This document shows, piece by piece, positions 2,224 to 19,915 of a DNA stretch of 64,000 nt. The DNA comes from Dehalococcoidia bacterium. GTDB lineage: Bacteria; Chloroflexota; Dehalococcoidia; Plut-88900. The notes under the pieces were generated by a model. It searched no databases and was not told where the DNA came from. It saw only the letters and a list, made by a program, of their open reading frames with translations. How positions within the stretch are numbered: position 1 is the stretch's first letter; every line of letters starts with the position of its first letter. The position numbers were made by a program, and so were the translations under genes. The stretch spans positions 224,001-288,000 of the forward strand of contig OZ240215.1 of the NCBI GenBank assembly GCA_965197585.1, written 5' to 3'.

Positions 2224-2898
2224 TCAATCATCCAGCAGCCCGTTCTGCGCAGCCCACACCACGATCTCCTGCTTCGAGTCAACGCCCAGCTTTACCTGAA
2301 TGGTGTAGATGGCGTTTCGGATGGTGACCGCTTTGACTTCCCTCGCCGCCGCAATCGCAACGTATGACATGCCCCGGCAGAACGACACAAGTATCTCCTT
2401 CTCCCTCTGGGTCAGGTTGACCTCCTTTGATTTCGCTCCGCGCCGAATCCTGTCGAAGACCCGCCTCACCACCTCGGTAGGCAGACGCCCCTCGCCTGCA
2501 GCCGCGCTCTTCATCATGCCCAGGACCTGGTCCATTCCGGCCACCTTCTGAAGATAGCCGGCCGCACCGGCGGCCACCGCCTCTATCACGGCGTTCGCCT
2601 CCGTGGATGCGGTCAGCATGATGACCCGTGTCTTGGGCAGAGACTCCATGATCTCCCGGCACGCCTCCACGCCGTCCTTCCTGGGCATCATGACGTCCAT
2701 GACGATCAAGTCGGGCGACAGCTCGGAGGCCGCCTTCACCGCCTCCACTCCGTCCCTGGCCTGGCCCACCACCTCGAACTCCTCAGACCGCTCCAGAATC
2801 ACCTGAAGACCTTCCCGAGTGACCGCATGGTCGTCGGCGAGCAGCACCCTTATGCGACGAGACTCTGTTGACAATTTATCCCTCCTGTTGTCCGCCAC
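2224..2898 (-). CDS. NarL/LuxR-family response regulator
   Basis: Receiver motifs LADDH, MDVMMP, GYLQK; C-terminal LTQREKEIL...VTIRNAIYTIQVKLGV LuxR HTH. Confidence 0.95.
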   Translation of the reverse strand: MADNRRDKLSTESRRIRVLLADDHAVTREGLQVILERSEEFEVVGQARDGVEAVKAASELSPDLIVMDVMMPRKDGVEACREIMESLPKTRVIMLTASTEANAVIEAVAAGAAGYLQKVAGMDQVLGMMKSAAAGEGRLPTEVVRRVFDRIRRGAKSKEVNLTQREKEILVSFCRGMSYVAIAAAREVKAVTIRNAIYTIQVKLGVDSKQEIVVWAAQNGLLDD

Positions 2899-4138
2899 CG
2901 GACAATGGCATCACGCAGGTCACGCTGGCGCCCCCGGCCGGTCCCGTGGGCTCGACGATAAGGCGTCCGCTCAGACGCCCGGCGTACACCCGCATGTTTG
3001 CGAAGCCGTGGCCCCGCTCCTCGTAGTCGTCGGGAAGGCCCACCCCGTCGTCCGACACCGACAGCCTGAGCTCATCCCGTCCGAAGTCGAGATCGACCAG
3101 CACCCGGCTCGCCCCGGCATGGCGAAGGGCGTTGGCGAGGGCGTTGTGGGCTAAGGAGAACAGGAGGCTCCTGACCTCTACCGAGAGTGGCGGCTCCACA
3201 CCGTTCTGCGTCAGCTCCGCCGACACCGACGTGATGGACTTGAACGTCGCGACGTGCGAGTCCAGGGTCCAGCCCAACTCACCGCCCTCGAATATGCGGC
3301 CCATGTCAATCGGGTGTCTCAGCTGCCAGACGGCGGTCTTGGAAAGCCGTGAGGTGGCATCGAGCCGTGCGGTGAGCTCCTCGTTGGAGTCTCCGGCAAC
3401 CTGTTGGGCGGCGTCTATCCCCAGGCCGATCATGAAGGCGGTCTGGGCGGCCGTATCGTGAATGGCCTGGGAGAGCTCGATCCGCTCCCGCTGAAGCGTC
3501 CGCTCCCGCTCCACTGCGGCTCTCCACCTGCTCCGCTCGAAGTTGGAGATCAGGTTGACCGTTGCGGCCACCGCATACATGACGAAGATCCTGGCGAGCA
3601 GGGACTTCTCGTCCCTTGCCCCCATGTCGATTCCTTCCCCCACCGTGAGGCTTATCGCCAGATAGAGGACGGACACAACTGTCACACAGACCATGGTCAG
3701 CCTGAAGGAGGTGAGAACCAACGCATACCCGGCCAGCGGGGGGTAGTACAGCAGGTGCAAGAAGTAGTGGTCGAAGCCTCCCCCTATCACCGTGGCGACC
3801 GAGACCATTGTTACATCCATGGCCGCGAACGCAAGAATCCAGCGCCATGTGATGGGCCTTTTCGTCGCAAGCCGGTACTGCGTCATTCCATTGAACGCCA
3901 CTAGCAGAATGAATAGCGGCGCATACACGACGTAGCGCTCCGGCCAACCCACAGGCCGGTACGCCAGCTGCACCAAATTGAAGGCGACCACGAACCAGTG
4001 TGCCCAGACCAGTATGGTCGCTATGTATCTCAGCCCATCCGGGTCGAGCCGCATGAGCGTCGAGTTTTTAATTCGAAAGACGCCAGCGGCCTTACTGATT
4101 GGACGGAAGCCCCGGCTCTGCTGAGGTGCCTGAGACAT
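2876..4138 (-). CDS. Membrane sensor histidine kinase (NarX/DesK-like class)
   Basis: Several TM segments; H-box IHDTAAQ, N-box NALANALRHA, G1 DDGVG, G2 GHGFANM; overlaps the response regulator start. Confidence 0.92.
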   Translation of the reverse strand: MSQAPQQSRGFRPISKAAGVFRIKNSTLMRLDPDGLRYIATILVWAHWFVVAFNLVQLAYRPVGWPERYVVYAPLFILLVAFNGMTQYRLATKRPITWRWILAFAAMDVTMVSVATVIGGGFDHYFLHLLYYPPLAGYALVLTSFRLTMVCVTVVSVLYLAISLTVGEGIDMGARDEKSLLARIFVMYAVAATVNLISNFERSRWRAAVERERTLQRERIELSQAIHDTAAQTAFMIGLGIDAAQQVAGDSNEELTARLDATSRLSKTAVWQLRHPIDMGRIFEGGELGWTLDSHVATFKSITSVSAELTQNGVEPPLSVEVRSLLFSLAHNALANALRHAGASRVLVDLDFGRDELRLSVSDDGVGLPDDYEERGHGFANMRVYAGRLSGRLIVEPTGPAGGASVTCVMPLSGGGQQEG

Positions 4139-4289
4139 CTCCTCTCCTGTATGCGCGTGAAACCAAGGAATGTTTGGTGGTCACGACAGTGCGTAGGTGA
4201 CCGCTAATCTAGCCACTTTCGTTTATGTCCACAAGAGTGAAATGTTGCAGAAACACACTCTCTCAGAGCCAACACTATTGCTGTCCTAA

Positions 4290-4361
4290 GAGTGTGATTA
4301 GGCACTTACCAAACCGACGAAGAGGCTCTATTTTCCTTGCTGGTAGAAACCGGACGATAGT
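4290..4361 (+). promoter_or_regulatory. Putative operator (G/A)AGTG-N8-CACTT plus candidate sigma70-like promoter
   Basis: Inverted repeat at 4290-4307 (perfect AAGTG-N8-CACTT at 18951-18968 in copy 2); TTCCTT-N17-GATAGT, present as TTTCTT-N17-GATAGT in copy 2. Confidence 0.35.
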
Positions 4362-4364
4362 TGG

Positions 4365-4620
4365 GGTCACAGGCCGCCACGTCAGCTGTGGAAGTCGGAG
4401 GAGGTCGTAGGTTCCGCTGGCTTCGCCTGTGCCGGGGAGGCTCTCACGTGGTGCTCGACAGGCCAGTCCATCCACCTCGGACCGCGGACGGAACTGCGGC
4501 GCCCGCAGTCGCTGCGCCGCTCGCCCCTGGGGTTCGCCGCCTACGGCGAGCTAGCACAGACGTCCTCCCCGAATTTTCGGACTCGGCTAGCCGGGGGTAA
4601 GTTATGACCACCTCCCGGCG
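4365..4620 (+). ncRNA. Candidate structured cis-regulatory 5' leader RNA
   Basis: Long-range pairings GGAGGAgGTC/GACgTCCTCC, GTTCCG/CGGAAC, GCTGGCTT/AGGCCAGT, CTGTGC/GCACAG; RBS pairs with ACCTCCCGGC just inside the CDS. Confidence 0.4.
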
Positions 4621-7600
4621 TCTTGCGACGCTCCCACTGCTGCTCATCGGACTGGCGGTCATCGCCGCCCTGCTTCTCACTCCTGGGGCCCAGGCCCAGA
4701 GCCGGGACTCCGGCAGCGATTTCACCCTGGACGCCGCCAACGGCTACCCGACCGGCATCTGGTCGGACGGGACCACCATGTGGGTCGCGGACTTCGAGGA
4801 TCACAAGCTGTACGCCTACCGGATGTCGGACCGGAGCCGGGACTCGGGCAAGGACTTCACTCTGGACGCCGACAACGGCTCTCCGGTGGGCATCTGGTCG
4901 GACGGGACCACCATGTGGGCGTCGGACTTCACCGACGCCAAGCTGTACGCCTACCGGATGTCGGACCGGAGCCGGGACTCGGGCAAGGACTTCAACACGC
5001 TTTCTGCAGCCGGCAACCTCTTTCCCGAGGGCATCTGGTCGGACGGGACCACGATGTGGGTGGCGGACACCGGCAACGACACGGTGTTCGCCTACGACCT
5101 GTCGACCAGGGCCTGGGACTTCGAGAAGGACATCACGCTGGGCCCCGGCCACGGCTCTCCGATGGGCGTCTGGTCGAACGGATCCACGATGTGGGTTTCG
5201 GACTGGCGGGACACCAAGCTGTACGCCTACCGGATGTCGGACCAGACGCGGGACTCCGGCAAGGACTTCGCGCTGGACGCCGACGATGAATCTTACGAGG
5301 GCATCTGGTCGGTCGGGTCCACGATGTGGGTAGCGTCCCGCGACGACGACAGGCTCTACGCATACGACTGGAACAATCCTGCGACGGGAGCGCCGACGAT
5401 AACCGGCGCGGTCCGAGTGGGCCAGACGCTGGCGGCGGGCACCCGCTCCATCGCCGACGCGGACGGGCTGGACGCCGCCATCTTCGAATATCAATGGGTT
5501 TCGAACGGCGGGAACGCCGACACGGACATCGCGGGCGCTACCGATTCGACCTACACCATCGTCCCCGGCGACCGGGGCAGGGCCGTCAAGGTCAGGGTGT
5601 CCTTCACCGACGGCGCCGGCAACAGAGAGTCGTTGACCAGCGAGCCGACGGGTCAGGTCGGGACCCCGGGCATCTGCGACCGGACGCCTGCGGTGATGGC
5701 GGCCATCGTCGCCGGGATGACCGGCGTCGGCGACTGCTCCGAGGCTTCCGAAACGAGGCTCAGGACTTGGACCGGCTCTCAGCACTTCGGCCCCGGCGTC
5801 ACGCCCGGGCTGTACCTGCAGGGGAGGGGACTGTCGGCCCTGCAGGCCGGAGACTTCCGGGACCTGTACACGCTGCGCGCCCTGGACCTGAACCGGAACT
5901 TCCTCGAGACCGTCCCGGACGGGCTCTTCGAAGACCTACGCGCCGTGGACGAGCTCTATCTGTCGGGAAACTTCATAGACGAACTGCCGGACGGGGTGTT
6001 CGACGGTCCAGGGGAAGAACTGAGCCTGCTGGACCTGTCGGCGAACGGCCTTGAGACGCTGCCGGAGGGCGTGCTGCGAAATCTGGCCGGACTCGTCTCG
6101 CTGTCGCTCTCGGGCAACGGGCTCTCGGACCTTCCGGCGGGCCTTTTCGACGGCCTGGTCGAACTCGAGGAGCTGGACCTGTCCGCCAACTCGATAGACG
6201 AGCTGCCGGACGGGGTGTTTGACCGCAATCTCGAGCTGCGCGGCCTGGACCTGTCGATCAACGAGATCTCCGAGCTGCCGGAAGGGGTCTTCGGCGGTCT
6301 CGGCGACCTGCAGAGCCTCTCCCTCGCGGGGAACGACCTGAAGAGCCTGCCGGAGGACGTGTTCGCCGACCTCGGGAGTCTCGCTGAGCTGGACCTTTCG
6401 GGAAACAAGCTCAAGGACCTGCCTACCGGCCTCTTCGAAGGTCTGTCGGGGCTGACCGACCTCGACGCGAGCGACAATCCTGGCGCACCCTTCACGTTCA
6501 CCGCAGAGCTGGAGCGACGGGGAGACGATACGGTCGTGGTCCGATTGGCCGAGGGCGCGACGCCGTTTGATCTTCAGATCGAACTGTCGGCCCGTAACGG
6601 AGACCTGTCCGCCGAGACCGTCACCATCGCATCAGGCAGTTCCTATTCGGACGTTGTCGAGGTTCGTGCGCACGGGCATCATCCCGTCACGGTGGAGATC
6701 GACTCAGTTGCTTTCCTGTTGCCTTCCGGGGGTTCAGCGTCGGGAATCCACGCCGACCGCGGCAGCGCCATGCTTATGTGGGTCGGCAGACCATTGGTCC
6801 AAAGGGAATGGATCCAGGATGGACCCTTTGCCCTGCATCCGGAGAACGCGGACCCGAAGAGCATATGGTCGGACGGCGAGACGCTTTGGGTGGGCGACGA
6901 GAGTGCCCGGAAGGTCTTCGCCTACAAGCTGTGGGACAATCCCGGCACTGCAGTCAGCGAGTACGGGACCCGAGACCCCGGCAGGGACCTTCCGAGCCTC
7001 GGCGACGAGGACTTCTACGTCACCGGCCACGGCCTCCGATTGTACGTCGCCGAAGAGTCCCTTGACGGCGCCAGCCGGGACGTCTTCGGCTACGACCTGA
7101 CGAGTTTCACGCGTGCGGAGGACCGGGACTTCGTCTACGGGGGCTTGAACGTCGCGGGGGGCGTGTTCATAGTGCGCGGCACGGCTACGGACGGCCGTCA
7201 CATGTGGATCACGAACACCACGTCGCATGCGCACGCCTTCCGTCTGTTCGACGACCCTGAGACGCCGGAGGACGAATACGGGAAGCCGGACACGTCCCGG
7301 AAACTGACGATCCCCGGCTTGGGCCAGCTGAGCGGCCTCTTCACCGACGGGCGGACGATGTGGGGCGTCAGGTTCGCCTCGAACGACGCCTCGGTGCGGA
7401 GCGTGAAACTGTCCGACGGAACCGATGCGGGGTACGACTTTCCGCTCCACGAGGACAACGACCACGCCTACGGCATCTGGTCGAACGGGGAGACCTTCTA
7501 CGTCGTTGACGCCGACGATGACATGATCTACACCTATCATGGCGTCGGCGGCGTCGTACGGCCCTCCGTCGAAGACGCGGAGACCGCCGCCCCGCTGGTC

Positions 7601-10600
7601 GGCAACACGGGGCAGCCCGGCGACGCCGGCCATGACCTGGGCTTGGCCGGCGCAAAGAGGGCCCAGGCGTTCACCACCGGGACCAGCAGAGCCGGGTATT
7701 CGCTGGCGTCCGTCGGGATCGAGTTCGGCGACGTCTCGGACACGTCGTCCGCGCCGTCCGACCTCGAGGTGACGCTCAACGCGGACGGCGGCGGCGTCCC
7801 GGGCGACGCTCTCTGCACGCTGATCGCCCCGGCGAGCCTGTTCGAGCGGAGCGTGAACACCTTCGCCGCTCCGGCCTCGGGGACGACCTGCCCGGTTCTC
7901 GAGAAAGAGACGACCTACTTCGTGGTCGTCGAAAGGGTCCGCGTCACCGGTTCCGGCGCCATCGCTGTCAGTGGAACGGTGAGCGGCTCCGAAGACACGG
8001 GAGCCGCGGAGGGGTGGTCCATCGCGGACGGAAGCGCGACATATTCTCCTCAGGCCGCCGCTCAGGGATGGGTCTACGACGCGTTTTCCTACAAGATCGA
8101 GGTGCGCGGCTCCTTCATCAACAACCCGGCTACCGGCGAGCCGACGATCGCGGGCACGCCGCAGGTTAAGCGAACCCTCGCCGTGGCGGTCTCCGACGTG
8201 TCGGATGAGGACGGGCTGTCCAACGTTTCTTACAGCTACCAGTGGATTGCCGGAGGGTTGGACATCGCCGGAGCCACCGGCTCCAGCTACACGCTCACGT
8301 CCAACGAGCAGGGCAAGCGGATCAAGGTGCAGGTGGCGTTCGTCGACGACCGTGGCAATCATGAAACGCTGACCAGCGAGGCCACGCCATCGGTCCAGGC
8401 GCCGGATCGGCCCGGAACCGTTTCGCTCTTTCCGGCGCGGCCGAGGGTCGGGATGGTGGTCAGCGCCGCGCTGAGCGATCCCGACGGCCTCCAGGGCGGC
8501 GGTTCGGGCCCTGCGGCATCTTCGGGCGCGGTTTCGTGGAGCTGGGCCAGGTCTCCTGATGGAAACGACTGGACCCGCATCGAGGCCTACGGCGAAGGAG
8601 ACAGCTACGTTCCAACCGAAGAAGACGAAGGGATGCTGCTCAAGGCCGAGGCGTCGTACACCGACGGGCACGGCTCAGGCAAGTCCGCTCAGGCCGTTTC
8701 GTCCGCTGGCGTGGGTGCCCGCGAACCGGTTCCGGAGTTGACGGTGACGGTAATCGTCACGGGCCTGTCCCACCCCTGGGGCATCGATTTCACCCCCGAC
8801 GGGACGATGCTGTTCACCCAGCGCGCCGGCGTGCTGAACGCGAGGCTGACCGACGGCACCGTCAAGCGGGTCGACGCGGATCTCGGAGATCTGCTCGTCG
8901 ACGGGTTCGCCGGCCTGCAGGCGCTGGCCGTGGACCCGGACTTTACGACCAACCGGCGGTTCTACACGCTCCAGGGGCGCGCCGGACGCGAGATGCAGGT
9001 GATCGCCTGGACGATCGATGCGGACTACGACGAGGCCACACGCGTCGTCGATCCCCTGGTAAAGGGAATACCGATCGGGCCCGGGCCCTGGCACTCGGGA
9101 GGCCGGCTGCTATTCGGTCCGGAGGGATATCTATGGATCGCGACCGGCGACGGGCGGGTGGTAACGGGCGCGCAGGACCTGACGTCCCTGGGCGGCAAGG
9201 TCCTGCGCGTAGACCCGCGGACGGGCGCTGGGGCGCCTGGCAATCCGTTCGTATCTTCCGAACTGGTGTATGCCTACGGCTTCCGCAACCCCCAGGGCCT
9301 GGCTCTGCGCCCGGGCACGGACCAGATGTGGCTGGTGGAGCACGGCCCGAAACACGACGACGAGATCAACCTGCTGAAAGCAGGCGGCAACTTCGGCTGG
9401 GATCCGGACCCGGCCGGCGGATCGTCGGGCTCCTACCACGAGGCCGGCGTCCCCATGACCGACCTGGAGAAGTACCCATCCGCCCGCCAGGCCAGATGGT
9501 CCTCGGGATTCCCCACCCTGGCAACCAGCGGGGCCGTTTTCCTGGATGGCCCCCAATGGGGGGAGTGGGAAGGGCGACTCGCGGTGGCTACGCTCAATGC
9601 GAAGTCGCTGCGGGTCTTCGAGTTCACCGAACAGGGCGATTTCGCGGGTCAGATCGTCGTTCCGGAGCTCGATGGCAGCCACGGCCAGTTGCGGACCCCG
9701 GTGCTCGGCCCCGACGGGGCGCTGTACATCGCCACCTCCAACGCACCCGGCGTCGACAGGATTCTCAGGGTGGCCGCCAACAGTGCCGCGACGGGAGCGC
9801 CCGTCATCAGCGGCACCGTTGAAGTCGGCGAATCGCTGACGGCGGTCGTGTCCGGGATCGCCGACCCCGACGGGCTCGACGATGCTGCGTTCAGTTTCCA
9901 GTGGGCCCGCAGCCACTACGGGAGCAATTTCTCCGACATCGAAGGAGCGACGGCTTCGACCTACACCCTGGTTATGGCTGACCTTGGCAAGACTATCAAC
10001 GTGCGGGTGTCGTTCTATGACGACGGAGGCAGCCTGGAGGCGCTGACCAGTCAGAGGACGGTCAAGGTATCAGTCGTGGCATGTACGGTCGGCGAGCATG
10101 CCCCTGCGGCAACGGCGGTAGAGGTAGAAGCCGTTCCCGCTATCGTCGAGTCCACCACCGAGGAATACTTCGTGCTCTACGTGCGGCCCGCCCTGAGCTC
10201 CGAACGAGAGTTCCCGATCTCGGTGACCCTGGGCGAAGACGGCACAACAACGCTGACCGAGCAGCTGTCCCCGCTCCCCAAGGAGCATTACCGGGTGGAG
10301 AAGTTCCTCATCGCCGACCCGGCCGACATCGACAACGACTGCATCGACGACATCACCGAATTGGGGGACCCGGTGGGGATGAACCCGCTGAACCCCGCGC
10401 GGGCGGTCCCTTTTCGTGATGGCGCTGTGGCCATTCCAGACCGTGAGACATTCGAGGCGCTTTCCTACAAGGGCAGAGACGTTCCCTATCACCGTCATCT
10501 CCAGGACCTGGAGTTTGTCAAGTTCTACATTATCGGCTCGTCTGCCGAGAACATGGGTGTCTATTTCATTAACACCGAGACCCACCGAATACATCCCGAT

Positions 10601-13600
10601 TTCGGGGATGCAATCGGTCTCTGGAACGATCCGCTCTGGGGACAGGGGTACATGGGCGGCGAGATCATATACCATCCCAATGTGGTTGCTCCCGATGGTT
10701 CCCTGGGCGTCTACCGCTATCAGTTCCAGCCTATGGACGTATACTCCTTCGGCGCTGTGGCCCGTTCGTATGAGGCGCTTGCTGCCAGCATGCCGCTGCT
10801 TGATAACAACTTTGCCTACTATCCGATGCCGAGGAGAGCCCTGCCGCTCTATCACAGAGAACGGGCCCTCTACGATGATTCCCGGATCAATGTGGTGTTG
10901 AGAGAGGACATCCTGCCAGATGTTCCATTTATCCCCCTCAACGTTGGGGAGGGGTACGGTTTCCTCAGGCTCATGTCGTTGGAGGAACGCCCCGACCCGC
11001 GCGACGTGGTGATCTACGAGACTATCCCCAACGAGCTTTCCCGGGTCGTCGGCCTCATCACCACCGTACCCCAGACACCGCTTTCCCACGTCAACCTGCG
11101 GGCCGTCCAGGACGGTGTCCCCAACGCCTTCATTCGCGACGCTCTCGACGAGGGCGACATCAATGATCTCATCGGCAGATATGTCCACTACAGCATCACG
11201 GCGGACGGCTACTCCATCCGCGCCGCCACTCCCGCCGAAGTCGAGGCCTACTTCGCCGCTTCGCGCCCTCTCGGAACCCAGACGCCGGAACGGGACCTCA
11301 CAGTCACCCAGATCACCGACCTGGACGACATCGGCTTCGACGACTGGAACGCTTTCGGCGTAAAGGCGGCCAACGTGGCCGTGCTGCGGACGCTGGGTTT
11401 TCCTGACGGAACCGTCCCCCACGGGTTCGCGGTGCCCTTCTACTTCTACGACGAGTTCATGAAATACAACGGGTTCTATGACGACGTGGAGGAGATGCTG
11501 GCCGACCCGGAGTTCCAGTCGGACTATGACACCCAGGAGAAAGAACTCAAGAAACTGCGCAAGAAGATCAAGAAGGGGGAAACGCCCGACTGGATCATCA
11601 CAGCACTGGAGGAGATGCACGCCACCTACGCCGAAGGGCAATCCCTGCGCTACCGGTCGAGCACAAACAACGAGGATCTGCCGGGCTTCAGTGGCGCTGG
11701 GCTGTACGACTCAAAGACCCAGGACCCGGAGGAGACGGAGGAGGACGGTATCGACAAGTCCATCAAAGGGGTGTGGGCCAGCCTGTGGAACTTCCGGGCA
11801 TTCACTGAACGCGAGTTCCACCGCATCGACCACATAGAGACGGCCATGGGGGTCCTGGTGCATCCCAACTACTCGGACGAGCTGGCCAACGGCGTGGCCG
11901 TCAGCTTCGACCCTATCTACGGAACGGAGGGGAGCTACTACGTCAACACGCAACTCGGGGAGGACCTGGTCACCAATCCCGACGCACACTCGGTGCCCGA
12001 GGAAATCCTGTTGGACCTGTCCGGTTCATACACCACCCTGGTGACCTCCAACCAGGTGGCAGGAGGACAACTCCTCATGAGCGATGCTCAAATTGGCCAG
12101 TTGAGCCGGCATCTCCAGGACATCCATGACCATTTCGAGGGTCTGTACAACCCCGGACCCGACGAACCCTTTGCAATGGAGATCGAGTTCAAGATCACCA
12201 GCGACGACGTCCTGTCCATCAAACAGGCCCGCCCCTGGGTGTTTGACGCAACTAACGCCGGACCACCGCAGGAAGAGCCGATATGGTCCGCGACCCTTAC
12301 GGTGGGGACCGCAGAGAACTTCGCCGGCTACACGACATTCGTGGCCTCGCCGGAAACCAACACCCTGGGCGCACTCTCGTCGGACACCATCACTCTGGAT
12401 GGTGTCAGCTACACCGTGAAGGCCCTGGCGGTTCGGGACGGCGAGTTGATCCTCTCCGTGACGCCAAAGCTGGCTGCAGGTTTTGTGCTGGTTGCGGGGA
12501 CATCTGAATTCGCCTCCACCGATGCATCTACCCTGGAAACGGACTCTCTCTTGCAGTTCTACTGGAATAACCCAGGACTGGACTGGTCCGAGGAGGAAGA
12601 GGTCGCTGTCAGACTAACTGAGCCGAACGATAACGACCCGGCCACGGGAGCGCCCACGATCACTGGAACTTCGCAGGTGGACCAGACGTTGACGACGGAC
12701 ACCTGGGCCATTACCGACGAAGACGGGCTGACCAACGTTTCCTACAGCTACCAGTGGATCAGGAGCGACGGCAACACCGACACCGACATAGCGGGAGAGA
12801 CGGACTCGACCTACACGCTGGTCCGCGCCGACGAGGGCAAGACCATCAAGGTGCGGGTGAGCTTCACCGACGACGCCGACAATGCCGAGACGCTGACCAG
12901 CGCGGCGACGGGGGTGGTTGAGGCCAAGCCCAACACCCTGGCCACGGGAACGCCCACGATCACTGGAACGGCCCAGGTGGGAGAGACGCTGACGGTCCTC
13001 ACCAACGGGATCGCCGACGAAGACGGGCTGACCAATGTTCTCTACAGCTACCAGTGGATCAGGAGCGACGGCAACGCCGACACCGACATAGCGGGAGAGA
13101 CGGACTCGACCTATACGCTGGTCCGCGCCGACGAGGGCAAGACCATCAAGGTGGGGGTGAACTTCACCGACGACGCCGATAACGCCGAGACGCTGACCAG
13201 CGCAGCGACGGGGGTGGTTGAGGCCAAGCCCAACACCCCGGCGACGGGAGCGCCCACGATCACTGGAACTTCGCAGGTGGACCAGACGTTGACGGCGGAC
13301 ACCTGGGCCATTGCCGACGAAGACGGGCTGACCAACGTTTCCTACAGCTACCAGTGGATCAGGAGCGACGGCAACACCGACACCGACATAGCGGGAGAGA
13401 CGGACTCGACCTACACGCTGGTCCGCGCCGACGAGGGCAAGACCATCAAGGTAGGGGTGAGCTTCACCGACGACGCCGACAATGCCGAGACGCTGACCAG
13501 CGCGGCGACGGGGGTGGTTGAGGCCAAGCCCAACACCCTGGCCACGGGAACGCCCACGATCACTGGAACGGCCCAGGTGGGAGAGACGCTGACGGTCCTC

Positions 13601-16600
13601 ACCAACGGGATCGCCGACGAAGACGGGCTGACCAATGTTCTCTACAGCTACCAGTGGATCAGGAGCGACGGCAACGCCGACACCGACATAGCGGGAGAGA
13701 CGGACTCGACCTATACGCTGGTCCGCGCCGACGAGGGCAAGACCATCAAGGTGGGGGTGAACTTCACCGACGACGCCGATAACGCCGAGACGCTGATTAG
13801 CGCGGCGACGGGGGTGGCGTCCCGCTCCGACAAGCCGGTGGCGGATGGGTCGACCCCGGTGTGGTCGGCGGACATGTCTGTGGTGGATCTCGGTAACGGC
13901 TCCATTGGCGCCGTCAGCGCCAATCTCTTTTCGAACCAAGAAGGCAGTGCGGGTCTTCAGGCAAAGTGGCTGTGGTACTACAGCCCGGGGCGTTATATAC
14001 GCCTGTCATTTACGGATGTTGTACCCAGTGGGGAGGAACTGACGCTAGAGATCGGAGATGTGGCCCTGACGTTGCAGGCGGGAGATTCGGCCTTCACCTG
14101 GGAGGAGGTCGACGTCGATTGGGAGGACGGTCAGGTCATTCCAGTGCGCATCGTCCCGACGTCGGAGACAGCGGTGTCCCAGCCCAACACCCCGGCGACA
14201 GGAGGGCCGACCATCAGTGGAACGGCCCAGGTGGACCAGACGCTGTCCGTGGACACGTCTAACATCGCCGACCAGGACGGGCTGAACAACGTTTCCTACA
14301 GCTACCAGTGGATCAGGAGCGACGGCAACACCGACACCGACATAGCGGAAGAGACGGACCCGACCTACATCCTAGTCCCCGCCGACGAGGGCAAGACCAT
14401 CAAGGTGCGGGTGAGCTTCACCGACGAAGCAGACCACGAGGAGACGCTGACCGGCAATCCGACCAGGCCAGTGACTGCGGCACCCAACCGTCACGCGACG
14501 GGCAAGCCCACCATTGGCGGGACGCCCCAGGTGGACCAGACGCTGACCGCGGACACGTCTAACATCGCCGACCATGACGGGCTGAACAACGTCTCTTACA
14601 GCTACCAGTGGATCGCCGGAGGTACGGACATTGATGGGGCCACCGGGTCCACCTACACCCTGACTGCCAGTGAGCAGGGGCAGACCATCCGGGTTCGTGT
14701 GACGTTCACCGACGACCGGGACAACGCCGAGACCCTGACCAGCGTGGCGACTGTGGCCGTTGTTGCAGCGCCCAACCGCGAGGCCACGGGCCACCCCGCC
14801 ATCGGCGGGACGCCCCAGGTGGACCAGACGCTGACCGCGGACACGTCTAACATCGCCGACCAGGACGGGCTGAACAACGTCTCTTACAGCTACCAATGGA
14901 TGGCCGGAGGTTCGGACATTGATGGGGCCACCGGGTCCACCTACACCCTGACTGCCAGCGAGCAGGGGCAGACCGTACAGGTGAAGGTGACGTTCACTGA
15001 CGACCGGAACAACGCCGAGACCCTGACCAGCGTGGCGACTGTGGCCGTTGCTGTAGCGCCCAACCGAGAGGCCACGGGCCAGCCCACCATCGACGGGACG
15101 CCCCAGGTGGGAGAGACACTAACGGCGGATACGGCAAACATCGCCGACCAGGACGGGCTGAATAACGTGTCCTACAGCTACCAGTGGATCGCTGGAGGTA
15201 CGGACATCGTCGGGGCCACCGGCTCGAGCTACGAGCTTACGTCCAGCGAGCAGGGGCAGCCCATCCAGGTCCGGGTGACTTTCACCGACGATGCCGATAA
15301 CGAGGAGACGCTTATAAGCGCTGCAACGGAGGTGGTGCAGCAGGGTGGTAACGCCTGGTCCGCCACTATCACCGTGGGGACAAGAGATGGATACACAGGG
15401 TATTCGTACTGGGGCGATCCCGGCCTGGGGTCCCTGTCGGCCACCGAGGCCGAATGGGACGGCAAGACCCACTACGTCAGGTACATCTTTCTCAAGGATG
15501 GAGAGCTCTGGCTTGGCCTGAACAACGAGATGTTCTCCACCGGCTTCGTGCTGTCGGTTGGGGACGAGGAGTTCGGTTCGGCGGACGCCTTGGTGGATAG
15601 GAGTGGCGGTGCGTCCTACAGATTCCGGTGGGATGACCGGGGATTGGGCTGGTCGGATGGGGAGGAAGTGTCGGTGAACCTCCTGCAGTCCGACCAGAAT
15701 ACCCCGGCCCTGGGCGCGCCGACCATCAGCGGAACGGCACAGGTGGACGAGACACTGACTGCGGATACCTCTGGCGTTGAGGACGCGGACGGGTTGACCA
15801 ACGTGTCGTACAGCTACCAGTGGATGGCTGACGGCGTGGACATTCAGGACGCGACCAGTTCCACCCACAAGCTCGTATTCCCCGACCGGGGCAAGAGCAT
15901 CAAGGTGAAGGTGTCCTTCACCGACGACCGGGACAACGCCGATACCCTTACCAGCGCGGCGACTGTGGTCGTTGTTGCAGCGCCCAACCGCGAGGCCATG
16001 GGATATCCCACCATCACCGGAATGCCCCAGGTGGGACAGACCCTGACGGCGGACACTTCGCCAATCGCCGACCGCGACGGGCTGAACAACGTCTCTTACA
16101 GCTACCAGTGGATCGGCGGAGGGTCGGACATCGATGAGGCCACAGGCTCTAACTACGAGCTTGCGTCCAGCGAGCAGGGACAGACCATCCAGGTTCGGGT
16201 GACTTTCACCGACGACCGGGACAACGCCGAGACCCTTACCAGCGCGGCAACTGTGGCCGTTGTTGCAGCGCCCGACCGTCAGGCCACGGGCCTGCCCACC
16301 ATCAGCGGTACGCTCCAGGTAGGAGAGACCCTAATGGCGGGCACGTCGGGTATTACCGACGCCGACGGGCTCACCAACGTTTCCTTCGAGTACCAGTGGA
16401 TCAGGGGCGACAGCGGTGCCGGAGCGGACATAGACGGAGCGACGGACGCCACCTACACTCTGACCGCCGGCGACCAGGGGAAGACCATCAAGGTGAAGGT
16501 GTCCTTCACCGACGACGCAGACCACGAGGAGAAGCTGACCAGCGCGGCGACGGGAGTGGTTGCGGCCAAGCCCAACACTCCGGCCATGGGAGCGCCCACC

Positions 16601-18724
16601 ATTGATGGAACGGCCCAGGTGGGAGAGACGCTTACGGTCCTCACCAACGGCATCACCGACGAAGACGGGCTGACCAACCCAACGTACAGCTACCAGTGGA
16701 TTCGGAACGACGGAACCAATGACGCGCACATAGGAGGTAAGACAGGTTCGACCTACACCCTGAACGATGACGACGTGGGGAAGAGCATCAAGATGCGGGT
16801 GAGCTTCACCGACGACGCCGACCACGAGGAGACCCTGACCAGCGCGGCGACGGGGGTGGTTACAGCCAAGCCCAACTCTCCAGCCACGGGAGCGCCCACC
16901 ATTGATGGCACGGCCCAGGTGGGAGAGACGTTCACTGCCCTCACCAACGGCATCACCGACGAAGACGGGCTGACCAACCCAACGTACAGCTACCAGTGGA
17001 TCAGGAGCGACAACGGCACCGACGCCGATATAGCAGGGCAGACAGACTCCACCTACACGCTAGTGGCCGCCGACCAAGGCAAGACCATCATGGTGCGGGT
17101 GACCTTCACCGACGACGCCGATAACGAGGAGACCCTGACCAGCGCGGCAACGGAGGTGGTGCAGCAGGGTAGCAACGCTTGGTCCGCCACGATGACCGTG
17201 GGGACAAGAGATGGGTTCACCGGGTATTCGTACTGGAGCAATCCACACCTGGGGTCCCTGTCGGCCACCGAGGTCGAATGGGACGGCAAGACCCACTATG
17301 TCAGGTTCCTTTTTCTCAAGGACGGCGAGCTCCGGCTCGGCCTGAACGAAGAGATGTTCTCCACCGGCTTCGTGCTGTCGGTTGGGGACGAGGAGTTCGG
17401 CTCGGCGGACGCCATGGTGGATCATGGCGGTGCGTCCTACAGATTCCGGTGGGATGACCGGGGATTGGGCTGGTCGGATGGGAACGAGGTGTCGCTAAAC
17501 CTCGTGCTGTCCGACCAGAATACCCCGGCCCTGGGCGCGCCGACCATCAGCGGTACGGACCAAGTGGATGAGACGCTGACTGCGGACATCTCCGGTGTTG
17601 AGGACGCGGACGGGCTGGACAACGTGTTGTACAGCTACCAGTGGATGGCTGACGGCGTGGATATTCAGGACGCGACCAGTTCCACCTACAAGCCAGTATT
17701 CCCCGACCAGGGCAAGACCATCAAGGTGCGGGTGACCTTCACCGACGACCGGGACAACACCGAGACCCTTGGCAGCGAGGCGACGGGTGCAGTAGCGGCG
17801 GCGCCCAACCGTGATGCCACGGGAGCTCCCACCATCACAGAAATGCCCCAAGTGGGACAGACGCTGACGGCGGACACGTCTAACATCGCCGACCAGGACG
17901 GGCTGACCAACGTCTCTTACAGCTACCAGTGGATCGCCGGAGGGTCGGACATCGATGGGGCCACCAGCTTCAGCTACGAGCTCACGTCTAGCGAACAGGG
18001 TCGGACCATCCAGGTCCGGGTGACCTTCACCGACGACCGGGACAACGCCGAGACCCTTACCAGCGAGGCGACTGTGGCCGTTGTTGCAGCGCCCAACCGC
18101 GAGGCCACCGGCCTGCCGGCCATCAGCGGCACGCCGCAGGTGGGGGAGACCCTCACCGCATCAACCTCGTCCATAGCCGACGGGGACGGGCTGAACAACG
18201 TGTCCTACCGTTACCAGTGGATCGCCGGAGGTACGGACATCGATGGGGCCACCGGCTCCAGTTACGAGCTCACGTCCAGCGAGCAGGGGCAGACCATCCA
18301 GGTCCGTGTGACTTTCACAGACGACCGCGACAATGAGGAAACTCTGACCAGCGCGGCTACTGTCGAAGTGGCGGCGGCGCCAGTTCCGCTCACCGTCCGA
18401 CTGAAGGTCGCCGCCCCGACCTCCCACGACGGCTCGTCTGAGTTTACCTTCGAAATCGAGTTCAGCGAGGAGTTCGGCCTGAGCTACGTGACCCTGAAGA
18501 ACCATGCCTTCAATGCAGCCGGCGGATCCGTGGAGAGGGCGCAGAGAACGAACAAGCCCAGCAACATCTCCTGGAGCATCATGGTAAAGCCCACCTCCAC
18601 CGGGGACGTGACGATCGAACTCCGGGCAACCACGGACTGCGGAGCTACCGGAGCCATCTGCACCGGCGACGACAGGAAACTGTCCAACTCGCTGAGCTTC
18701 ACCGTCTTTGGGCCGGGGGGCTAG
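4604..18724 (+). CDS. Giant (4706 aa) secreted mosaic surface protein: GIWSDG propeller repeats, LRRs, PQQ-dependent sugar dehydrogenase domain, PPDK/PEP-synthase N-terminal ATP-grasp domain, ~19 Ig-like repeats, Cys-containing C-terminal domain
   Basis: Uninterrupted ORF with Sec signal ending AQA-Q. LPEGVFxGL LRRs at ~5810-6490. GLSHPWGIDF/HSGGRLLFGPEG/GFRNPQG/EHGP..DEIN at ~8735-9775. GVKAAN/RSSTNNEDLPGFSGAGLYDS/VWASLWN/EIEFK..QARP at ~11340-12245. Repeats NxPATGxPTIxG...YSYQW. Confidence 0.93.
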   Translation: MTTSRRLATLPLLLIGLAVIAALLLTPGAQAQSRDSGSDFTLDAANGYPTGIWSDGTTMWVADFEDHKLYAYRMSDRSRDSGKDFTLDADNGSPVGIWSDGTTMWASDFTDAKLYAYRMSDRSRDSGKDFNTLSAAGNLFPEGIWSDGTTMWVADTGNDTVFAYDLSTRAWDFEKDITLGPGHGSPMGVWSNGSTMWVSDWRDTKLYAYRMSDQTRDSGKDFALDADDESYEGIWSVGSTMWVASRDDDRLYAYDWNNPATGAPTITGAVRVGQTLAAGTRSIADADGLDAAIFEYQWVSNGGNADTDIAGATDSTYTIVPGDRGRAVKVRVSFTDGAGNRESLTSEPTGQVGTPGICDRTPAVMAAIVAGMTGVGDCSEASETRLRTWTGSQHFGPGVTPGLYLQGRGLSALQAGDFRDLYTLRALDLNRNFLETVPDGLFEDLRAVDELYLSGNFIDELPDGVFDGPGEELSLLDLSANGLETLPEGVLRNLAGLVSLSLSGNGLSDLPAGLFDGLVELEELDLSANSIDELPDGVFDRNLELRGLDLSINEISELPEGVFGGLGDLQSLSLAGNDLKSLPEDVFADLGSLAELDLSGNKLKDLPTGLFEGLSGLTDLDASDNPGAPFTFTAELERRGDDTVVVRLAEGATPFDLQIELSARNGDLSAETVTIASGSSYSDVVEVRAHGHHPVTVEIDSVAFLLPSGGSASGIHADRGSAMLMWVGRPLVQREWIQDGPFALHPENADPKSIWSDGETLWVGDESARKVFAYKLWDNPGTAVSEYGTRDPGRDLPSLGDEDFYVTGHGLRLYVAEESLDGASRDVFGYDLTSFTRAEDRDFVYGGLNVAGGVFIVRGTATDGRHMWITNTTSHAHAFRLFDDPETPEDEYGKPDTSRKLTIPGLGQLSGLFTDGRTMWGVRFASNDASVRSVKLSDGTDAGYDFPLHEDNDHAYGIWSNGETFYVVDADDDMIYTYHGVGGVVRPSVEDAETAAPLVGNTGQPGDAGHDLGLAGAKRAQAFTTGTSRAGYSLASVGIEFGDVSDTSSAPSDLEVTLNADGGGVPGDALCTLIAPASLFERSVNTFAAPASGTTCPVLEKETTYFVVVERVRVTGSGAIAVSGTVSGSEDTGAAEGWSIADGSATYSPQAAAQGWVYDAFSYKIEVRGSFINNPATGEPTIAGTPQVKRTLAVAVSDVSDEDGLSNVSYSYQWIAGGLDIAGATGSSYTLTSNEQGKRIKVQVAFVDDRGNHETLTSEATPSVQAPDRPGTVSLFPARPRVGMVVSAALSDPDGLQGGGSGPAASSGAVSWSWARSPDGNDWTRIEAYGEGDSYVPTEEDEGMLLKAEASYTDGHGSGKSAQAVSSAGVGAREPVPELTVTVIVTGLSHPWGIDFTPDGTMLFTQRAGVLNARLTDGTVKRVDADLGDLLVDGFAGLQALAVDPDFTTNRRFYTLQGRAGREMQVIAWTIDADYDEATRVVDPLVKGIPIGPGPWHSGGRLLFGPEGYLWIATGDGRVVTGAQDLTSLGGKVLRVDPRTGAGAPGNPFVSSELVYAYGFRNPQGLALRPGTDQMWLVEHGPKHDDEINLLKAGGNFGWDPDPAGGSSGSYHEAGVPMTDLEKYPSARQARWSSGFPTLATSGAVFLDGPQWGEWEGRLAVATLNAKSLRVFEFTEQGDFAGQIVVPELDGSHGQLRTPVLGPDGALYIATSNAPGVDRILRVAANSAATGAPVISGTVEVGESLTAVVSGIADPDGLDDAAFSFQWARSHYGSNFSDIEGATASTYTLVMADLGKTINVRVSFYDDGGSLEALTSQRTVKVSVVACTVGEHAPAATAVEVEAVPAIVESTTEEYFVLYVRPALSSEREFPISVTLGEDGTTTLTEQLSPLPKEHYRVEKFLIADPADIDNDCIDDITELGDPVGMNPLNPARAVPFRDGAVAIPDRETFEALSYKGRDVPYHRHLQDLEFVKFYIIGSSAENMGVYFINTETHRIHPDFGDAIGLWNDPLWGQGYMGGEIIYHPNVVAPDGSLGVYRYQFQPMDVYSFGAVARSYEALAASMPLLDNNFAYYPMPRRALPLYHRERALYDDSRINVVLREDILPDVPFIPLNVGEGYGFLRLMSLEERPDPRDVVIYETIPNELSRVVGLITTVPQTPLSHVNLRAVQDGVPNAFIRDALDEGDINDLIGRYVHYSITADGYSIRAATPAEVEAYFAASRPLGTQTPERDLTVTQITDLDDIGFDDWNAFGVKAANVAVLRTLGFPDGTVPHGFAVPFYFYDEFMKYNGFYDDVEEMLADPEFQSDYDTQEKELKKLRKKIKKGETPDWIITALEEMHATYAEGQSLRYRSSTNNEDLPGFSGAGLYDSKTQDPEETEEDGIDKSIKGVWASLWNFRAFTEREFHRIDHIETAMGVLVHPNYSDELANGVAVSFDPIYGTEGSYYVNTQLGEDLVTNPDAHSVPEEILLDLSGSYTTLVTSNQVAGGQLLMSDAQIGQLSRHLQDIHDHFEGLYNPGPDEPFAMEIEFKITSDDVLSIKQARPWVFDATNAGPPQEEPIWSATLTVGTAENFAGYTTFVASPETNTLGALSSDTITLDGVSYTVKALAVRDGELILSVTPKLAAGFVLVAGTSEFASTDASTLETDSLLQFYWNNPGLDWSEEEEVAVRLTEPNDNDPATGAPTITGTSQVDQTLTTDTWAITDEDGLTNVSYSYQWIRSDGNTDTDIAGETDSTYTLVRADEGKTIKVRVSFTDDADNAETLTSAATGVVEAKPNTLATGTPTITGTAQVGETLTVLTNGIADEDGLTNVLYSYQWIRSDGNADTDIAGETDSTYTLVRADEGKTIKVGVNFTDDADNAETLTSAATGVVEAKPNTPATGAPTITGTSQVDQTLTADTWAIADEDGLTNVSYSYQWIRSDGNTDTDIAGETDSTYTLVRADEGKTIKVGVSFTDDADNAETLTSAATGVVEAKPNTLATGTPTITGTAQVGETLTVLTNGIADEDGLTNVLYSYQWIRSDGNADTDIAGETDSTYTLVRADEGKTIKVGVNFTDDADNAETLISAATGVASRSDKPVADGSTPVWSADMSVVDLGNGSIGAVSANLFSNQEGSAGLQAKWLWYYSPGRYIRLSFTDVVPSGEELTLEIGDVALTLQAGDSAFTWEEVDVDWEDGQVIPVRIVPTSETAVSQPNTPATGGPTISGTAQVDQTLSVDTSNIADQDGLNNVSYSYQWIRSDGNTDTDIAEETDPTYILVPADEGKTIKVRVSFTDEADHEETLTGNPTRPVTAAPNRHATGKPTIGGTPQVDQTLTADTSNIADHDGLNNVSYSYQWIAGGTDIDGATGSTYTLTASEQGQTIRVRVTFTDDRDNAETLTSVATVAVVAAPNREATGHPAIGGTPQVDQTLTADTSNIADQDGLNNVSYSYQWMAGGSDIDGATGSTYTLTASEQGQTVQVKVTFTDDRNNAETLTSVATVAVAVAPNREATGQPTIDGTPQVGETLTADTANIADQDGLNNVSYSYQWIAGGTDIVGATGSSYELTSSEQGQPIQVRVTFTDDADNEETLISAATEVVQQGGNAWSATITVGTRDGYTGYSYWGDPGLGSLSATEAEWDGKTHYVRYIFLKDGELWLGLNNEMFSTGFVLSVGDEEFGSADALVDRSGGASYRFRWDDRGLGWSDGEEVSVNLLQSDQNTPALGAPTISGTAQVDETLTADTSGVEDADGLTNVSYSYQWMADGVDIQDATSSTHKLVFPDRGKSIKVKVSFTDDRDNADTLTSAATVVVVAAPNREAMGYPTITGMPQVGQTLTADTSPIADRDGLNNVSYSYQWIGGGSDIDEATGSNYELASSEQGQTIQVRVTFTDDRDNAETLTSAATVAVVAAPDRQATGLPTISGTLQVGETLMAGTSGITDADGLTNVSFEYQWIRGDSGAGADIDGATDATYTLTAGDQGKTIKVKVSFTDDADHEEKLTSAATGVVAAKPNTPAMGAPTIDGTAQVGETLTVLTNGITDEDGLTNPTYSYQWIRNDGTNDAHIGGKTGSTYTLNDDDVGKSIKMRVSFTDDADHEETLTSAATGVVTAKPNSPATGAPTIDGTAQVGETFTALTNGITDEDGLTNPTYSYQWIRSDNGTDADIAGQTDSTYTLVAADQGKTIMVRVTFTDDADNEETLTSAATEVVQQGSNAWSATMTVGTRDGFTGYSYWSNPHLGSLSATEVEWDGKTHYVRFLFLKDGELRLGLNEEMFSTGFVLSVGDEEFGSADAMVDHGGASYRFRWDDRGLGWSDGNEVSLNLVLSDQNTPALGAPTISGTDQVDETLTADISGVEDADGLDNVLYSYQWMADGVDIQDATSSTYKPVFPDQGKTIKVRVTFTDDRDNTETLGSEATGAVAAAPNRDATGAPTITEMPQVGQTLTADTSNIADQDGLTNVSYSYQWIAGGSDIDGATSFSYELTSSEQGRTIQVRVTFTDDRDNAETLTSEATVAVVAAPNREATGLPAISGTPQVGETLTASTSSIADGDGLNNVSYRYQWIAGGTDIDGATGSSYELTSSEQGQTIQVRVTFTDDRDNEETLTSAATVEVAAAPVPLTVRLKVAAPTSHDGSSEFTFEIEFSEEFGLSYVTLKNHAFNAAGGSVERAQRTNKPSNISWSIMVKPTSTGDVTIELRATTDCGATGAICTGDDRKLSNSLSFTVFGPGG
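4701..5370 (+). repeat. Five ~45-aa GIWSDGTTMWV repeats (135-bp period), beta-propeller-like
   Basis: gccgggactc recurs at 4701, 4836, 4971; first units near-identical at DNA level. Confidence 0.9.
12641..13815 (+). repeat. Near-perfect 600-bp tandem duplication (two Ig-like modules, ABAB)
   Basis: Lines 12961-13190 and 13561-13790 essentially identical; 12661 vs 13261 differ by a few SNPs. Confidence 0.95.
15280..17950 (+). repeat. Dispersed ~850-bp intragenic duplication (15280-16110 vs 17100-17935)
   Basis: WSATxTVGTRDG...GKTHYVR...SDQNTPALGAPT block occurs twice, ~1820 bp apart. Confidence 0.9.
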
Positions 18725-18875: not shown

Positions 18876-19366
18876 ACTTTCGTCGATACTAGCAAGAGCA
18901 AAACGTTGCAGAAACACTCTCTCTAAAAGCTAACGACATTGCTGCCGAGAAAGTGTGATTAGGCACTTACCAAATCGACGAAGAGGCTCTATTTTCTTGC
19001 TGGTAGAAACCGGACGATAGTTGGAGTCACAGGCCACCATATCGGCTGTGGAAGTCGGAGGAGGTCGTAGGTTCCGCTGGCTTCGCCTGTGCCGGGGAGG
19101 CTCTCACATGGTGCTCGACAGGCCAGTCCATCCACCTCCGACCGCGGACGGAACTGCGGCCCCCACAGTCGCTGCACCGCTCGCCCCTGGGTTCGCCGCC
19201 TACGGCGAGCCGGCACAGACGTCCTCCCGGAATTTTCGGACTCGGCTAGCCGGAGGTAAGTCATGACCACCTCCCGGCGTCTTGCGCCGCTCCCCACTGC
19301 TGCTCATTGGGCTGGCGGCCCTCTGCGCCGCCCTGGTGCTCATCCCCTGGGTTGTCCAGGCCCAGA
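18876..19366 (+). repeat. Copy 2 of promoter/leader/signal-peptide cassette
   Basis: Homologous to 4215-4700; similarity ends at the VQA-Q signal cleavage site. Confidence 0.95.
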
Positions 19367-19560
19367 ACCAGGAGGTGACCGCCACCGCGGCCGCCACCGG
19401 CGCCAACCCCCCGGCCCAGCCCACGAACCTCCAGGCCTCGGCGGTACACGATTCGGTCACCCTCACCTGGACGGCCTCGACGGACCAGACGGTCACCCAC
19501 TACGCCATCCTCCGCCGCAACCCGGACACCGACGCATCGCAGGTCTTCCACGTCATCCTC
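19263..19560 (+). pseudogene. Frameshifted, truncated secreted fibronectin type III protein (shares cassette with the giant gene)
   Basis: MTTSRRLA start; extra C at 19292-19295 relative to copy 1; then PPAQPTNLQASAVHDSVTLTWTASTDQTVTHYAILRR (Fn3), breaking off at ~19560. Confidence 0.8.
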
Positions 19561-19711
19561 CGACCGTCGAAGCGGTTCGGGGAGGCGGTAGGCTTTCTCG
19601 CGGCCAGTGTTGGATCTGTCCATCGAGACAGGTTTACACAGTTCGATGAAAACGGCAGCCATGACGATGAAGTATACGGTGAAGAGAAAACTAAAGTGCT
19701 AGGAGGAGATA

Positions 19712-19915
19712 ATGACGCCTGGACCGGAACAAGACCGATTTGGCGAGATGTTGGAACAGTTCAACAGGGGTCTTGATGACCTGGAGAGTAAGCGCCGACG
19801 ATGGGCTAGCACGGGAGATCATCCTTACCACGAGCTCTTTTCCAACTTATTGCGCTACCAGCTTGACATGATAGTTCTGCTCGAAAACCGGATGCGCAAG
19901 CTGGAAGACCAATAA
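19712..19915 (+). CDS. Small hypothetical helical protein
   Basis: Strong RBS AGGAGGAG before ATG; coiled-coil-like composition. Confidence 0.55.
   Translation: MTPGPEQDRFGEMLEQFNRGLDDLESKRRRWASTGDHPYHELFSNLLRYQLDMIVLLENRMRKLEDQ

Follow-up and report, generated by a model that had tools for sequence, protein, structure and literature searches.

A 64,000-nt stretch of Dehalococcoidia bacterium contig OZ240215.1 (assembly GCA_965197585.1, positions 224,001 to 288,000; "the window" throughout) carries, ahead of a gene for a giant secreted protein, a long 5' leader that is a real and previously uncatalogued cis element, a new cis-regulatory leader. It is the 5' untranslated part of an expression cassette that joins a conserved promoter and the leader, some 260 nt long, to a ribosome-binding site (RBS) and a signal-peptide start, and the cassette sits before genes for large secreted or surface proteins in sponge-associated Dehalococcoidia. 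The most likely mechanism to be suggested by the sequence, and one held only tentatively at a probability of roughly 0.4, is translational control linked to a short upstream open reading frame (uORF), to which the uORF start region, a pair of hairpins and an occluded main Shine-Dalgarno (SD) sequence would each contribute.

A self-comparison of the window showed that the region 4215-4635, a repeat of about 420 nt, recurs at 18876-19294 with an identity of 81-95% by segment: 95% between 4332-4531 and 18992-19191, 81% between 4215-4335 and 18876-18996 and 93% between 4525-4635 and 19184-19294. The initial annotation of this DNA had reported the two copies and had taken 4365-4620 for a long structured leader, and both the duplication and a long conserved leader, common to many genes and genomes, are borne out. 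Its statement that most of the differences between the copies fall in the loop of a CACAG/CTGTG hairpin was overstated, as about 4 of the about 16 differences within 4365-4620 lie there. The parts of the cassette in the window are as follows.

4233..4307, plus strand: promoter-proximal repeats, AAGAGTG at 4233-4239, an inverted copy CACTCTC at 4256-4262, AAGAGTG at 4288-4294 and CACTT at 4303-4307
4306..4334, plus strand: deduced sigma-70-type promoter, -35 TTACCA at 4306-4311, 17-nt spacer, -10 TATTTT at 4329-4334
4341..4603, plus strand: predicted 5' untranslated leader of copy 1, about 263 nt, as follows from the deduced promoter
4604..18724, plus strand: gene served by copy 1, encoding a 4706-aa protein from ATG 4604 (open reading frame and domain search)
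18876..19294, plus strand: copy 2, with promoter, leader and signal-peptide start; ATG at 19264, followed by short open frames only

The cassette forms a family. A scan of species-representative genomes with the invariant promoter block as the pattern gave at least 119 loci, and nhmmer, used to confirm relatives, accepted 37 among the 119 matches listed; the confirmed loci with titles shown are all in Dehalococcoidia bacterium records, at least 20 of them (individual copies are numbered L below), and the other matches were due to chance and came from other phyla. Removal of duplicates left at least 46 promoter modules, spread over the genome of the window and no fewer than 20 further Dehalococcoidia records, and a leader core of about 140 nt (4434-4570 in copy 1) lies behind 33 of the 46. 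Six places match in the window's own genome (3.43 Mb in one contig) when the DNA search and the R1 search described below are taken together; the DNA search gave further copies of 70-73% identity and partial ones. A DNA search of 61 related genomes produced matches in five, including the window's own genome and one weak match, and none of the eight genomes of the same genus matched in that search. R1, a covariance model of the leader core, was run over 151 sampled genomes of the class and found the core in seven, in two of them weakly; it also revealed C1:2596836 and C1:2605222 as additional copies in the genome of the window, and one diverged copy in another (G084). A metagenome scan with the core motif yielded 121 loci, none of which was related by nhmmer at E values up to 10, short chance alignments aside. 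Sequencing runs containing the stretch, of RNA as well as DNA, bear the label sponge metagenome.

Promoter and leader core are separable modules. In the copies at C1:2596836, at C1:2605222 and in G084 (L286, L287 and L283) the core stands behind a different, AT-richer upstream sequence with an unrelated promoter and precedes other secreted-protein or lipoprotein genes. Conversely, 13 of the 46 promoter modules lack the core and continue into other sequence; modules without a leader were seen at G000:C1:468986 (L005) and at L021, L023/L094, L025, L046, L050, L057, L081 and L093. The leader is itself a mosaic, breaking off inside and giving way to unrelated or coding sequence in L014, L053 and L145. 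The genes downstream encode diverse giant secreted repeat proteins (GSDH/LRR/Ig-like, cadherin-like and, by eye, FN3-like) and a lipoprotein, with starts that by eye are signal-peptide-like or lipoprotein-like; the 4706-aa protein has GSDH, LRR, PPDK_N and Ig-like domains behind an N-terminus that looks by eye like a signal peptide.

The absence of a known RNA family, proposed initially, was upheld, since a search of the window against Rfam 15 at gathering scores found only a tRNA at 39532-39618, and an E-value search of 4150-4700 to E = 10 gave only a 13-bit match to sR38 on the opposite strand. A resemblance to an interrupted tRNA T-arm that had been remarked upon is not supported by any tRNA-clan match in 4150-4700, the tRNA just mentioned being the only one matched in the window. 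Neither an Rfam entry nor, among the papers listed, a description of the leader was found; some of these papers dealt with sponge symbionts in general, and the others did not contain the word Dehalococcoidia.

Conservation is strongly uneven along the leader, which in copy 1 can be divided as follows.

4363..4431, plus strand: 5' domain, with a GGAATCAC-type start, purine-rich GGAGGAGG and a GTCGTAGG loop; absent in L017, L073 and L106 and partly absent in L018 and L022
4434..4450, plus strand: SD-like GGGGAGG of the uORF at 4434-4440, 7-nt spacer, start GTG at 4448-4450
4448..4600, plus strand: uORF of 50 codons, with stop TAA at 4598-4600, one codon ahead of the main ATG
4454..4482, plus strand: most conserved block, CTCGACAG..GTCCAT.CACCT...AC, predicted unstructured and beginning two codons inside the uORF
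4493..4509, plus strand: hairpin He, ACTGCGG/CCGCAGT in copy 1 and CGACGGC-CCCT-GCCGTCG in most copies
4531..4552, plus strand: hairpin Hf, GGTTCGCCG-CCTA-CGGCGAGCT in copy 1, identical with the TCGCCG/CGGCGA hairpin of the initial annotation
4564..4570, plus strand: C-rich tract, CCTCCCC in copy 1 and runs of 5 to 19 C elsewhere
4591..4618, plus strand: main translation start, CCGGGGG with the SD GGGGG at 4593-4597, ATG at 4604-4606 and the complementary codons 3-5, CCTCCCGG, at 4611-4618

The case for the uORF begins with its start signals. A GGAGG-type motif is found 7 nt before the uORF start in most of 27 copies, the exceptions on reading the alignment being L073 and L106 (GTGGC), L084 (GGAAAAGC) and, more weakly, L010 (GAGGAAGC). 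Among 39 distinct sequences the first position of the start codon is A in 30, T in 7, G in 2 and never C, the second is T in 38 and the third is G in 36, such that an ATG, TTG or GTG codon is present in 36 of the 39. No stop interrupts the frame behind it for at least 43 codons in any of the 27 copies, and its length is 43-57 codons in most; in L287 it extends to 119 codons, with 25 nt between its end and the main ATG, and in L283 the distance is 14 nt. Where a main start was recognised (19 copies), the uORF stop overlaps it as ATGA in nine, lies 3 nt before it in three and lies 13-15 nt before it in two. The start region of the uORF is less structured than shuffled sequence (mean z +0.47), as expected of a translation start region. 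The uORF may well be translated.

At the other end of the leader the main SD has a predicted unpaired probability of 0.28 or less in 17 of 20 leaders, a figure obtained without a shuffled control, and the C-rich tract is predicted to be able to pair with G-rich segments and with the SD sequence, so that occlusion of the main RBS is plausible in the folding model. The initial annotation had the RBS able to pair with codons 3-6 of the gene or with upstream CTCGGC: CCGGGGG and CCTCCCGG do pair in 65% of the cells, but the 14 leaders compared contain no compensatory change between them.

If these elements work together, the leader would act in cis on translation and not by binding a metabolite. 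A strong SD and an NTG start would open the short uORF, which runs through the conserved unstructured block, the two stable hairpins and the C-rich tract and stops at or near the main start codon; ribosomes on the uORF might then open the pairing over the main SD, or re-initiate at the main start, and expression of the big gene would hence depend on translation of the uORF. The nearest described arrangement is that of the Salmonella mgtA and mgtCBR leaders, in which translation of a small ORF (mgtL, mgtP) is reported to open a sequestered RBS and the leader ORFs to contain proline codons (PMC8092293, PMC6460261, PMC5299641). The leader described here is likewise long, contains a short ORF with its own SD, has a main RBS that is predicted to be paired and, in about 9 of 27 copies, reads a C-run as two or more prolines in succession. 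It differs in having no sequence relation to the mgt leaders, in a longer uORF (43-57 codons mostly) that often ends in an ATGA overlap, in the lack of a proline run in copies 1 and 2, in the absence of a coding signature, and in serving giant secreted proteins rather than transporters.

The promoter-proximal part of the cassette lies upstream of the coordinates first annotated. The block beside the -35 is invariant in the first four copies, a CACTCT-like motif occurs upstream in 36 of the 46 modules and an AAGAGTG-like motif beside the -35 in 28, and the repeats form a candidate operator for a transcription factor. TAnnnT is found exactly 17 nt past TTACCA in 43 of the 46 modules; a consensus promoter scan at its threshold called no promoter here, the deduced one matching at 8 of 12 positions. 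Transcription would start near 4341, and it is on account of this predicted start that the leader is put at about 263 nt. Contigs from RNA libraries (four sponge metatranscriptome runs of one study) cover 4396-4583, and one of them spans 4417-4650, bridging the leader into the coding region, though neither RNA ends nor an absence of DNA carry-over can be read from such contigs. They begin at 4396-4417 and leave 4166-4395 uncovered in all four runs, which is no evidence either way for a start at about 4341. At their loose ends diverged sister leaders are seen, placed ahead of one and the same ribosome-binding region.

A number of observations weigh against control through the uORF. The start codon is replaced by ATA in three copies, the uORF overruns the main start in 5 of the 19 copies, and the share that ends at or near it, 14 of 19, is about the two-thirds that chance would give, since a stop stands beside the main start in two of the three frames. 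An open frame of 50 codons is not rare at about 70% G+C. There is no coding signature: variants at the three codon positions of codons 2-17 number 75, 47 and 55, without a third-position excess, and synonymous alleles make up 17 of 51 in codons 2-13 (27% expected, p = 0.19) and 39 of 111 in codons 2-24 (29% expected, p = 0.09). Frame-breaking indels of 1, 8 and 20 nt occur after codon 12-17 in otherwise intact copies. The GGAGG of the uORF may have another role, pairing over a distance with the C-rich tract to form a helix; at columns 11/161, a pair of this helix, the R1-fitted alignment has AU in 15 sequences, GC in 4 and other combinations in 11. The conserved block is absent altogether from L019 and L048, whose genes look intact, and the transcription start is a predicted one only. 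Lastly, the leaders of orthologous genes differ at 7-34% of sites (0.07-0.34), faster than the four-fold degenerate sites of the adjoining genes. The uORF was considered as a conserved protein and rejected in that capacity for want of a coding signature, and selection on its peptide is unproven.

That last comparison is also the starting point for the best placed of the alternatives, itself rather unlikely, according to which the leader would have no function at the level of RNA: the similarity of the promoter and signal-peptide cassettes would stem from common descent, horizontal spread and gene conversion within a multigene family that recombines fast, the hairpins would follow from base composition, and regulation would be exerted by the operator-like repeats. 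The orthologues compared (L001/L010/L018/L084 and L003/L013/L072/L101, over the first 400-900 nt of their coding regions) encode giant proteins that are 89-97% identical across genera or families, and only 4-19% of their four-fold degenerate sites differ (0.04-0.19). The leader is therefore no more conserved than the synonymous sites of its neighbouring orthologous genes, and its conservation alone is no proof of constraint. Because the divergence at four-fold sites is low against that of the leaders, the genes may have moved recently and the leaders have been exchanged or homogenised, and the sequences suggest a recent horizontal exchange of surface-protein genes between co-resident symbionts. 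Copies 1 and 2 have private features in common, among them an 8-bp pairing of GCTGGCTT with AGGCCAGT, yet the genes behind them differ, which points to gene conversion. Many copies, moreover, have lost part of their length, run into coding sequence or carry a frameshift.

Conserved 5' expression regions are common to variable surface-protein gene families, e.g. those of the Mycoplasma vsp/vlp type. Families of this type resemble the present one in having a near-identical promoter, leader and signal-peptide start before differing protein bodies, and in the traces of gene conversion and the presence of truncated copies and pseudogenes. In contrast to them, no site-specific inversion or recombinase was seen beside the copies (no systematic search was made), the length of the leader is unusual and the core also moves without the promoter. 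The retention of the core with different promoters and different genes speaks against a cassette devoid of RNA-level function, as does the strongly uneven conservation along the leader.

The folding tests bear on both sides of the same question. The minimum free energy of 4345-4620 corresponds to z = -1.10, 26 of 200 dinucleotide shuffles folding at least as well, and the mean over 12 leaders is -0.45 (range -3.1 to +1.6), so that the leader as a whole folds no better than shuffled sequence. Consensus folds had a structure conservation index of 0.03-0.28 and column-shuffle z values of +1.63, +0.63, -1.31 and +1.45, again no better than shuffled, and the RNAalifold consensus value was -6.9 on 19 leaders and -9.2 on 22 cores. 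When segments were tested separately only He (mean z -2.17, 19 copies) and Hf (-1.84, 20 copies) were consistently more stable than shuffled sequence, in most copies, compared with +0.41 (19 copies) for a further segment, Hg, and +0.47 (20 copies) for the conserved block; the copies are related, and the means hence do not derive from independent trials. He is paired in about 89% of the cells and has compensatory variants in L272/L279, L283 and L274: in the diverged L283 all seven pairs are kept through several changes and in L272/L279 two pairs have changed compensatorily, which is the strongest single support for a fold. The stem sequence and register of Hf vary between copies. These two hairpins, and the persistence of He through multiple changes, speak against a leader inert as RNA; the absence of excess folding energy and the low structure conservation index speak for it.

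Covariation was assessed with a core model consisting of the long-range G-rich/C-rich helix, He, Hg, Hf and two 3-bp stems. In an unfitted alignment of 20 sequences 3 of 32 pairs had changed on both sides, a number reached by 195 of 500 shuffles. With 31 strong matches fitted to R1 it was 11 of 32, reached by 5 of 500; 24 cells had changed on both sides, compared with a shuffled mean of 9.1 and reached by none of 500, and the covariation score was 0.157 against 0.04-0.07 for slid partners, although a control slid by +3 likewise gave 11 pairs. Fitting to R1 biases an alignment in favour of the model, and sequences that are related may outdo all shuffles. Inclusion of weak and decayed matches raised the count to 21 of 32 pairs, but those rows are not trusted. 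The 5' domain (21 sequences, unfitted) had 2 of 16 pairs changed on both sides, as reached by 442 of 500 shuffles. G-U pairs outnumbered A-C mismatches by 99 to 46 overall and by 41 to 30 outside the long-range helix, the latter giving no clear strand-specific signal of the RNA type and so favouring a leader without RNA-level function. A CAUGG/CCAUG helix around the uORF start was rejected on reading the alignment, as start-codon variants are uncompensated in it, and the small stems CUC/GAG and GAC/GUC, together with Hg, were uninformative, being almost invariant or no more stable than shuffles. Covariation for the core model is thus weak and alignment-dependent, its excess in the fitted alignment being a further point against a leader inert as RNA, and what is suggested, without being established, is structure of a local kind at the hairpins.

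The conserved block admits another reading, and an unlikely one, that the leader is a docking site for an RNA-binding protein or small RNA, which would bind at the unstructured segment 4454-4482 between the hairpins and co-regulate the secreted-protein mRNAs of the family in their translation or stability. At each of the three codon positions no part of the leader is better conserved than the block, which includes invariant alignment columns, is single-stranded by prediction and is followed by two hairpins of above-random stability, while the core is kept behind three kinds of promoter and is shared, as in a regulon, by many unrelated downstream genes. As to the factor itself, CsrA (PF02599) had no match in the window's genome, which is 92% complete (the control was positive in 3 of 14 named genomes), and neither the block nor its complement was found elsewhere in the genome beyond the six leaders, other sites needing 4 mismatches in 18. 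L019 and L048, which lack the block, are again awkward for such a site.

A quite improbable elaboration of uORF-linked control concerns the homopolymer between Hf and the RBS. Several copies (L004, L087, L101, L107, L073 and others) have a C-run there of 9 to 19 bases that differs in length between copies; it is absent in copies 1 and 2, which have only the interrupted CCTCCCC, and the loose ends of the RNA contigs carry similar C-runs of several lengths. The uORF reads the run as at least two consecutive prolines in about 9 of 27 copies, copies 1 and 2 not being among them, and the number of C in the run fixes the frame of the uORF at the main start. It is conceivable that the cassette, spreading horizontally between sponge symbionts that live together, forms a translational gate for the giant eukaryotic-like surface proteins of the symbiont, in which a translated uORF would be coupled to the main start and a hypermutable, polyproline-encoding C-run would set both the frame of the uORF and the speed of transit through it. 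Phase variation of the Neisseria/Haemophilus type depends upon homopolymeric-tract contingency loci. The leader resembles these in the C-run of 9 to 19 bases in the leader and uORF of several copies, the length of which sets the frame at the main start; it departs from them in that copies 1 and 2 have only CCTCCCC, and in that the length variation is known between copies and could be mimicked by homopolymer errors of long-read sequencing.

The least probable explanation, to which very little weight is given, is the one put forward by the initial annotation, namely a riboswitch for a metabolite or second messenger with mutually exclusive folds gating the RBS. The complementary segments listed for it are all present in copy 1, the principal pairings being these.

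4368-4372 and 4386-4390, plus strand: CACAG with CTGTG
4397-4406 and 4559-4568, plus strand: GGAGGAgGTC with GACgTCCTCC
4411-4416 and 4489-4494, plus strand: GTTCCG with CGGAAC
4416-4423 and 4460-4467, plus strand: GCTGGCTT with AGGCCAGT
4534-4539 and 4544-4549, plus strand: TCGCCG with CGGCGA
4591-4597 and 4611-4618, plus strand: CCGGGGG with CCTCCCGG

In an unfitted alignment of 14 diverged leaders 7 of 40 pairs in these stems had changed on both sides, as reached by 309 of 500 shuffles, and the stems pair in 72% of the cells against 33-43% for slid partners, which amounts to sequence conservation. CACAG/CTGTG and GCTGGCTT/AGGCCAGT are broken in most other copies, single pairs being unpaired in 8-12 of the 14 sequences, and the alternative stems CGTAGG/CCTACG and GCCTGT/ACAGGC, on which the switching depended, had none of 12 pairs compensatory (500 of 500 shuffles reach this). 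A long conserved leader without an Rfam match, a conserved core with some helices and, in subfamily B (L003, L013, L072 and L101), a GUGCUGGG that can pair either with upstream CCUAGCAC or with codons 3-6 would suit a riboswitch, but covariation-supported aptamer helices, excess stability and a conserved consensus fold are all wanting, neither the stems first proposed nor the 5' domain covary, large parts are deleted in natural variants, no pairing is predicted for the best-conserved block, and the downstream genes examined, diverse giant secreted repeat proteins, have no metabolic or transport theme in common that might hint at a ligand. Nor is a transcription attenuator indicated, as 4100-4700 contains no terminator-like site (G+C-rich hairpin followed by a T-run). 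SD-sequestering riboswitches share with the leader its 5' position, a conserved core and possible RBS occlusion, and are set apart from it by the missing supported aptamer fold, coherent gene set and Rfam match and by the large natural deletions. Two of the three outcomes named initially as refuting such a switch, folding at the level of shuffled sequence and a lack of significant covariation of its stems in diverged homologues, came out against it. For RNA discovery in GC-rich DNA the case is a caution, in that an elaborate fold suggested by two recent copies may fail on diverged homologues.

Some features of the neighbourhood may be noted. Within the 4706-aa gene, window positions 12600-18300 consist of long tandem-repeat arrays with units of 288-300 nt that are 60-99% identical. 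The gene behind copy 2 is apparently broken: compared with copy 1 there is an extra C in the C-run, the ATG at 19264 is off-frame, the signal peptide and mature frame are those of 19282-19776 (164 aa), and no long frame follows (to about 24000). It could be a pseudogene, or reflect a homopolymer error of the assembly; its orthologues at L073 and L106 are likewise readable only in the uORF frame. Divergently oriented upstream of copy 1 is a histidine kinase gene (HisKA_3 and HATPase_c, window 2876-4138, minus strand), and a second kinase-like gene, recognised by eye from its H-box motif, has the same divergent placement ahead of the leader copy at G000:C1:2605222 (L287 1-1341, minus strand); a two-component system might be linked to the operator-like repeats.

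Sponge symbionts are uncultured, and their giant eukaryotic-like, adhesin-like proteins are thought to mediate contact with the host. The leader core of about 140 nt, together with the uORF start, is a concrete and testable element for work on the control of these proteins, and the common promoter-leader cassette marks out a co-regulated set of genes that sequence searches suffice to recognise. Were the C-run also to act as a gate, each gene of the family could be turned on and off or adjusted separately, through slippage or through EF-P and proline supply.

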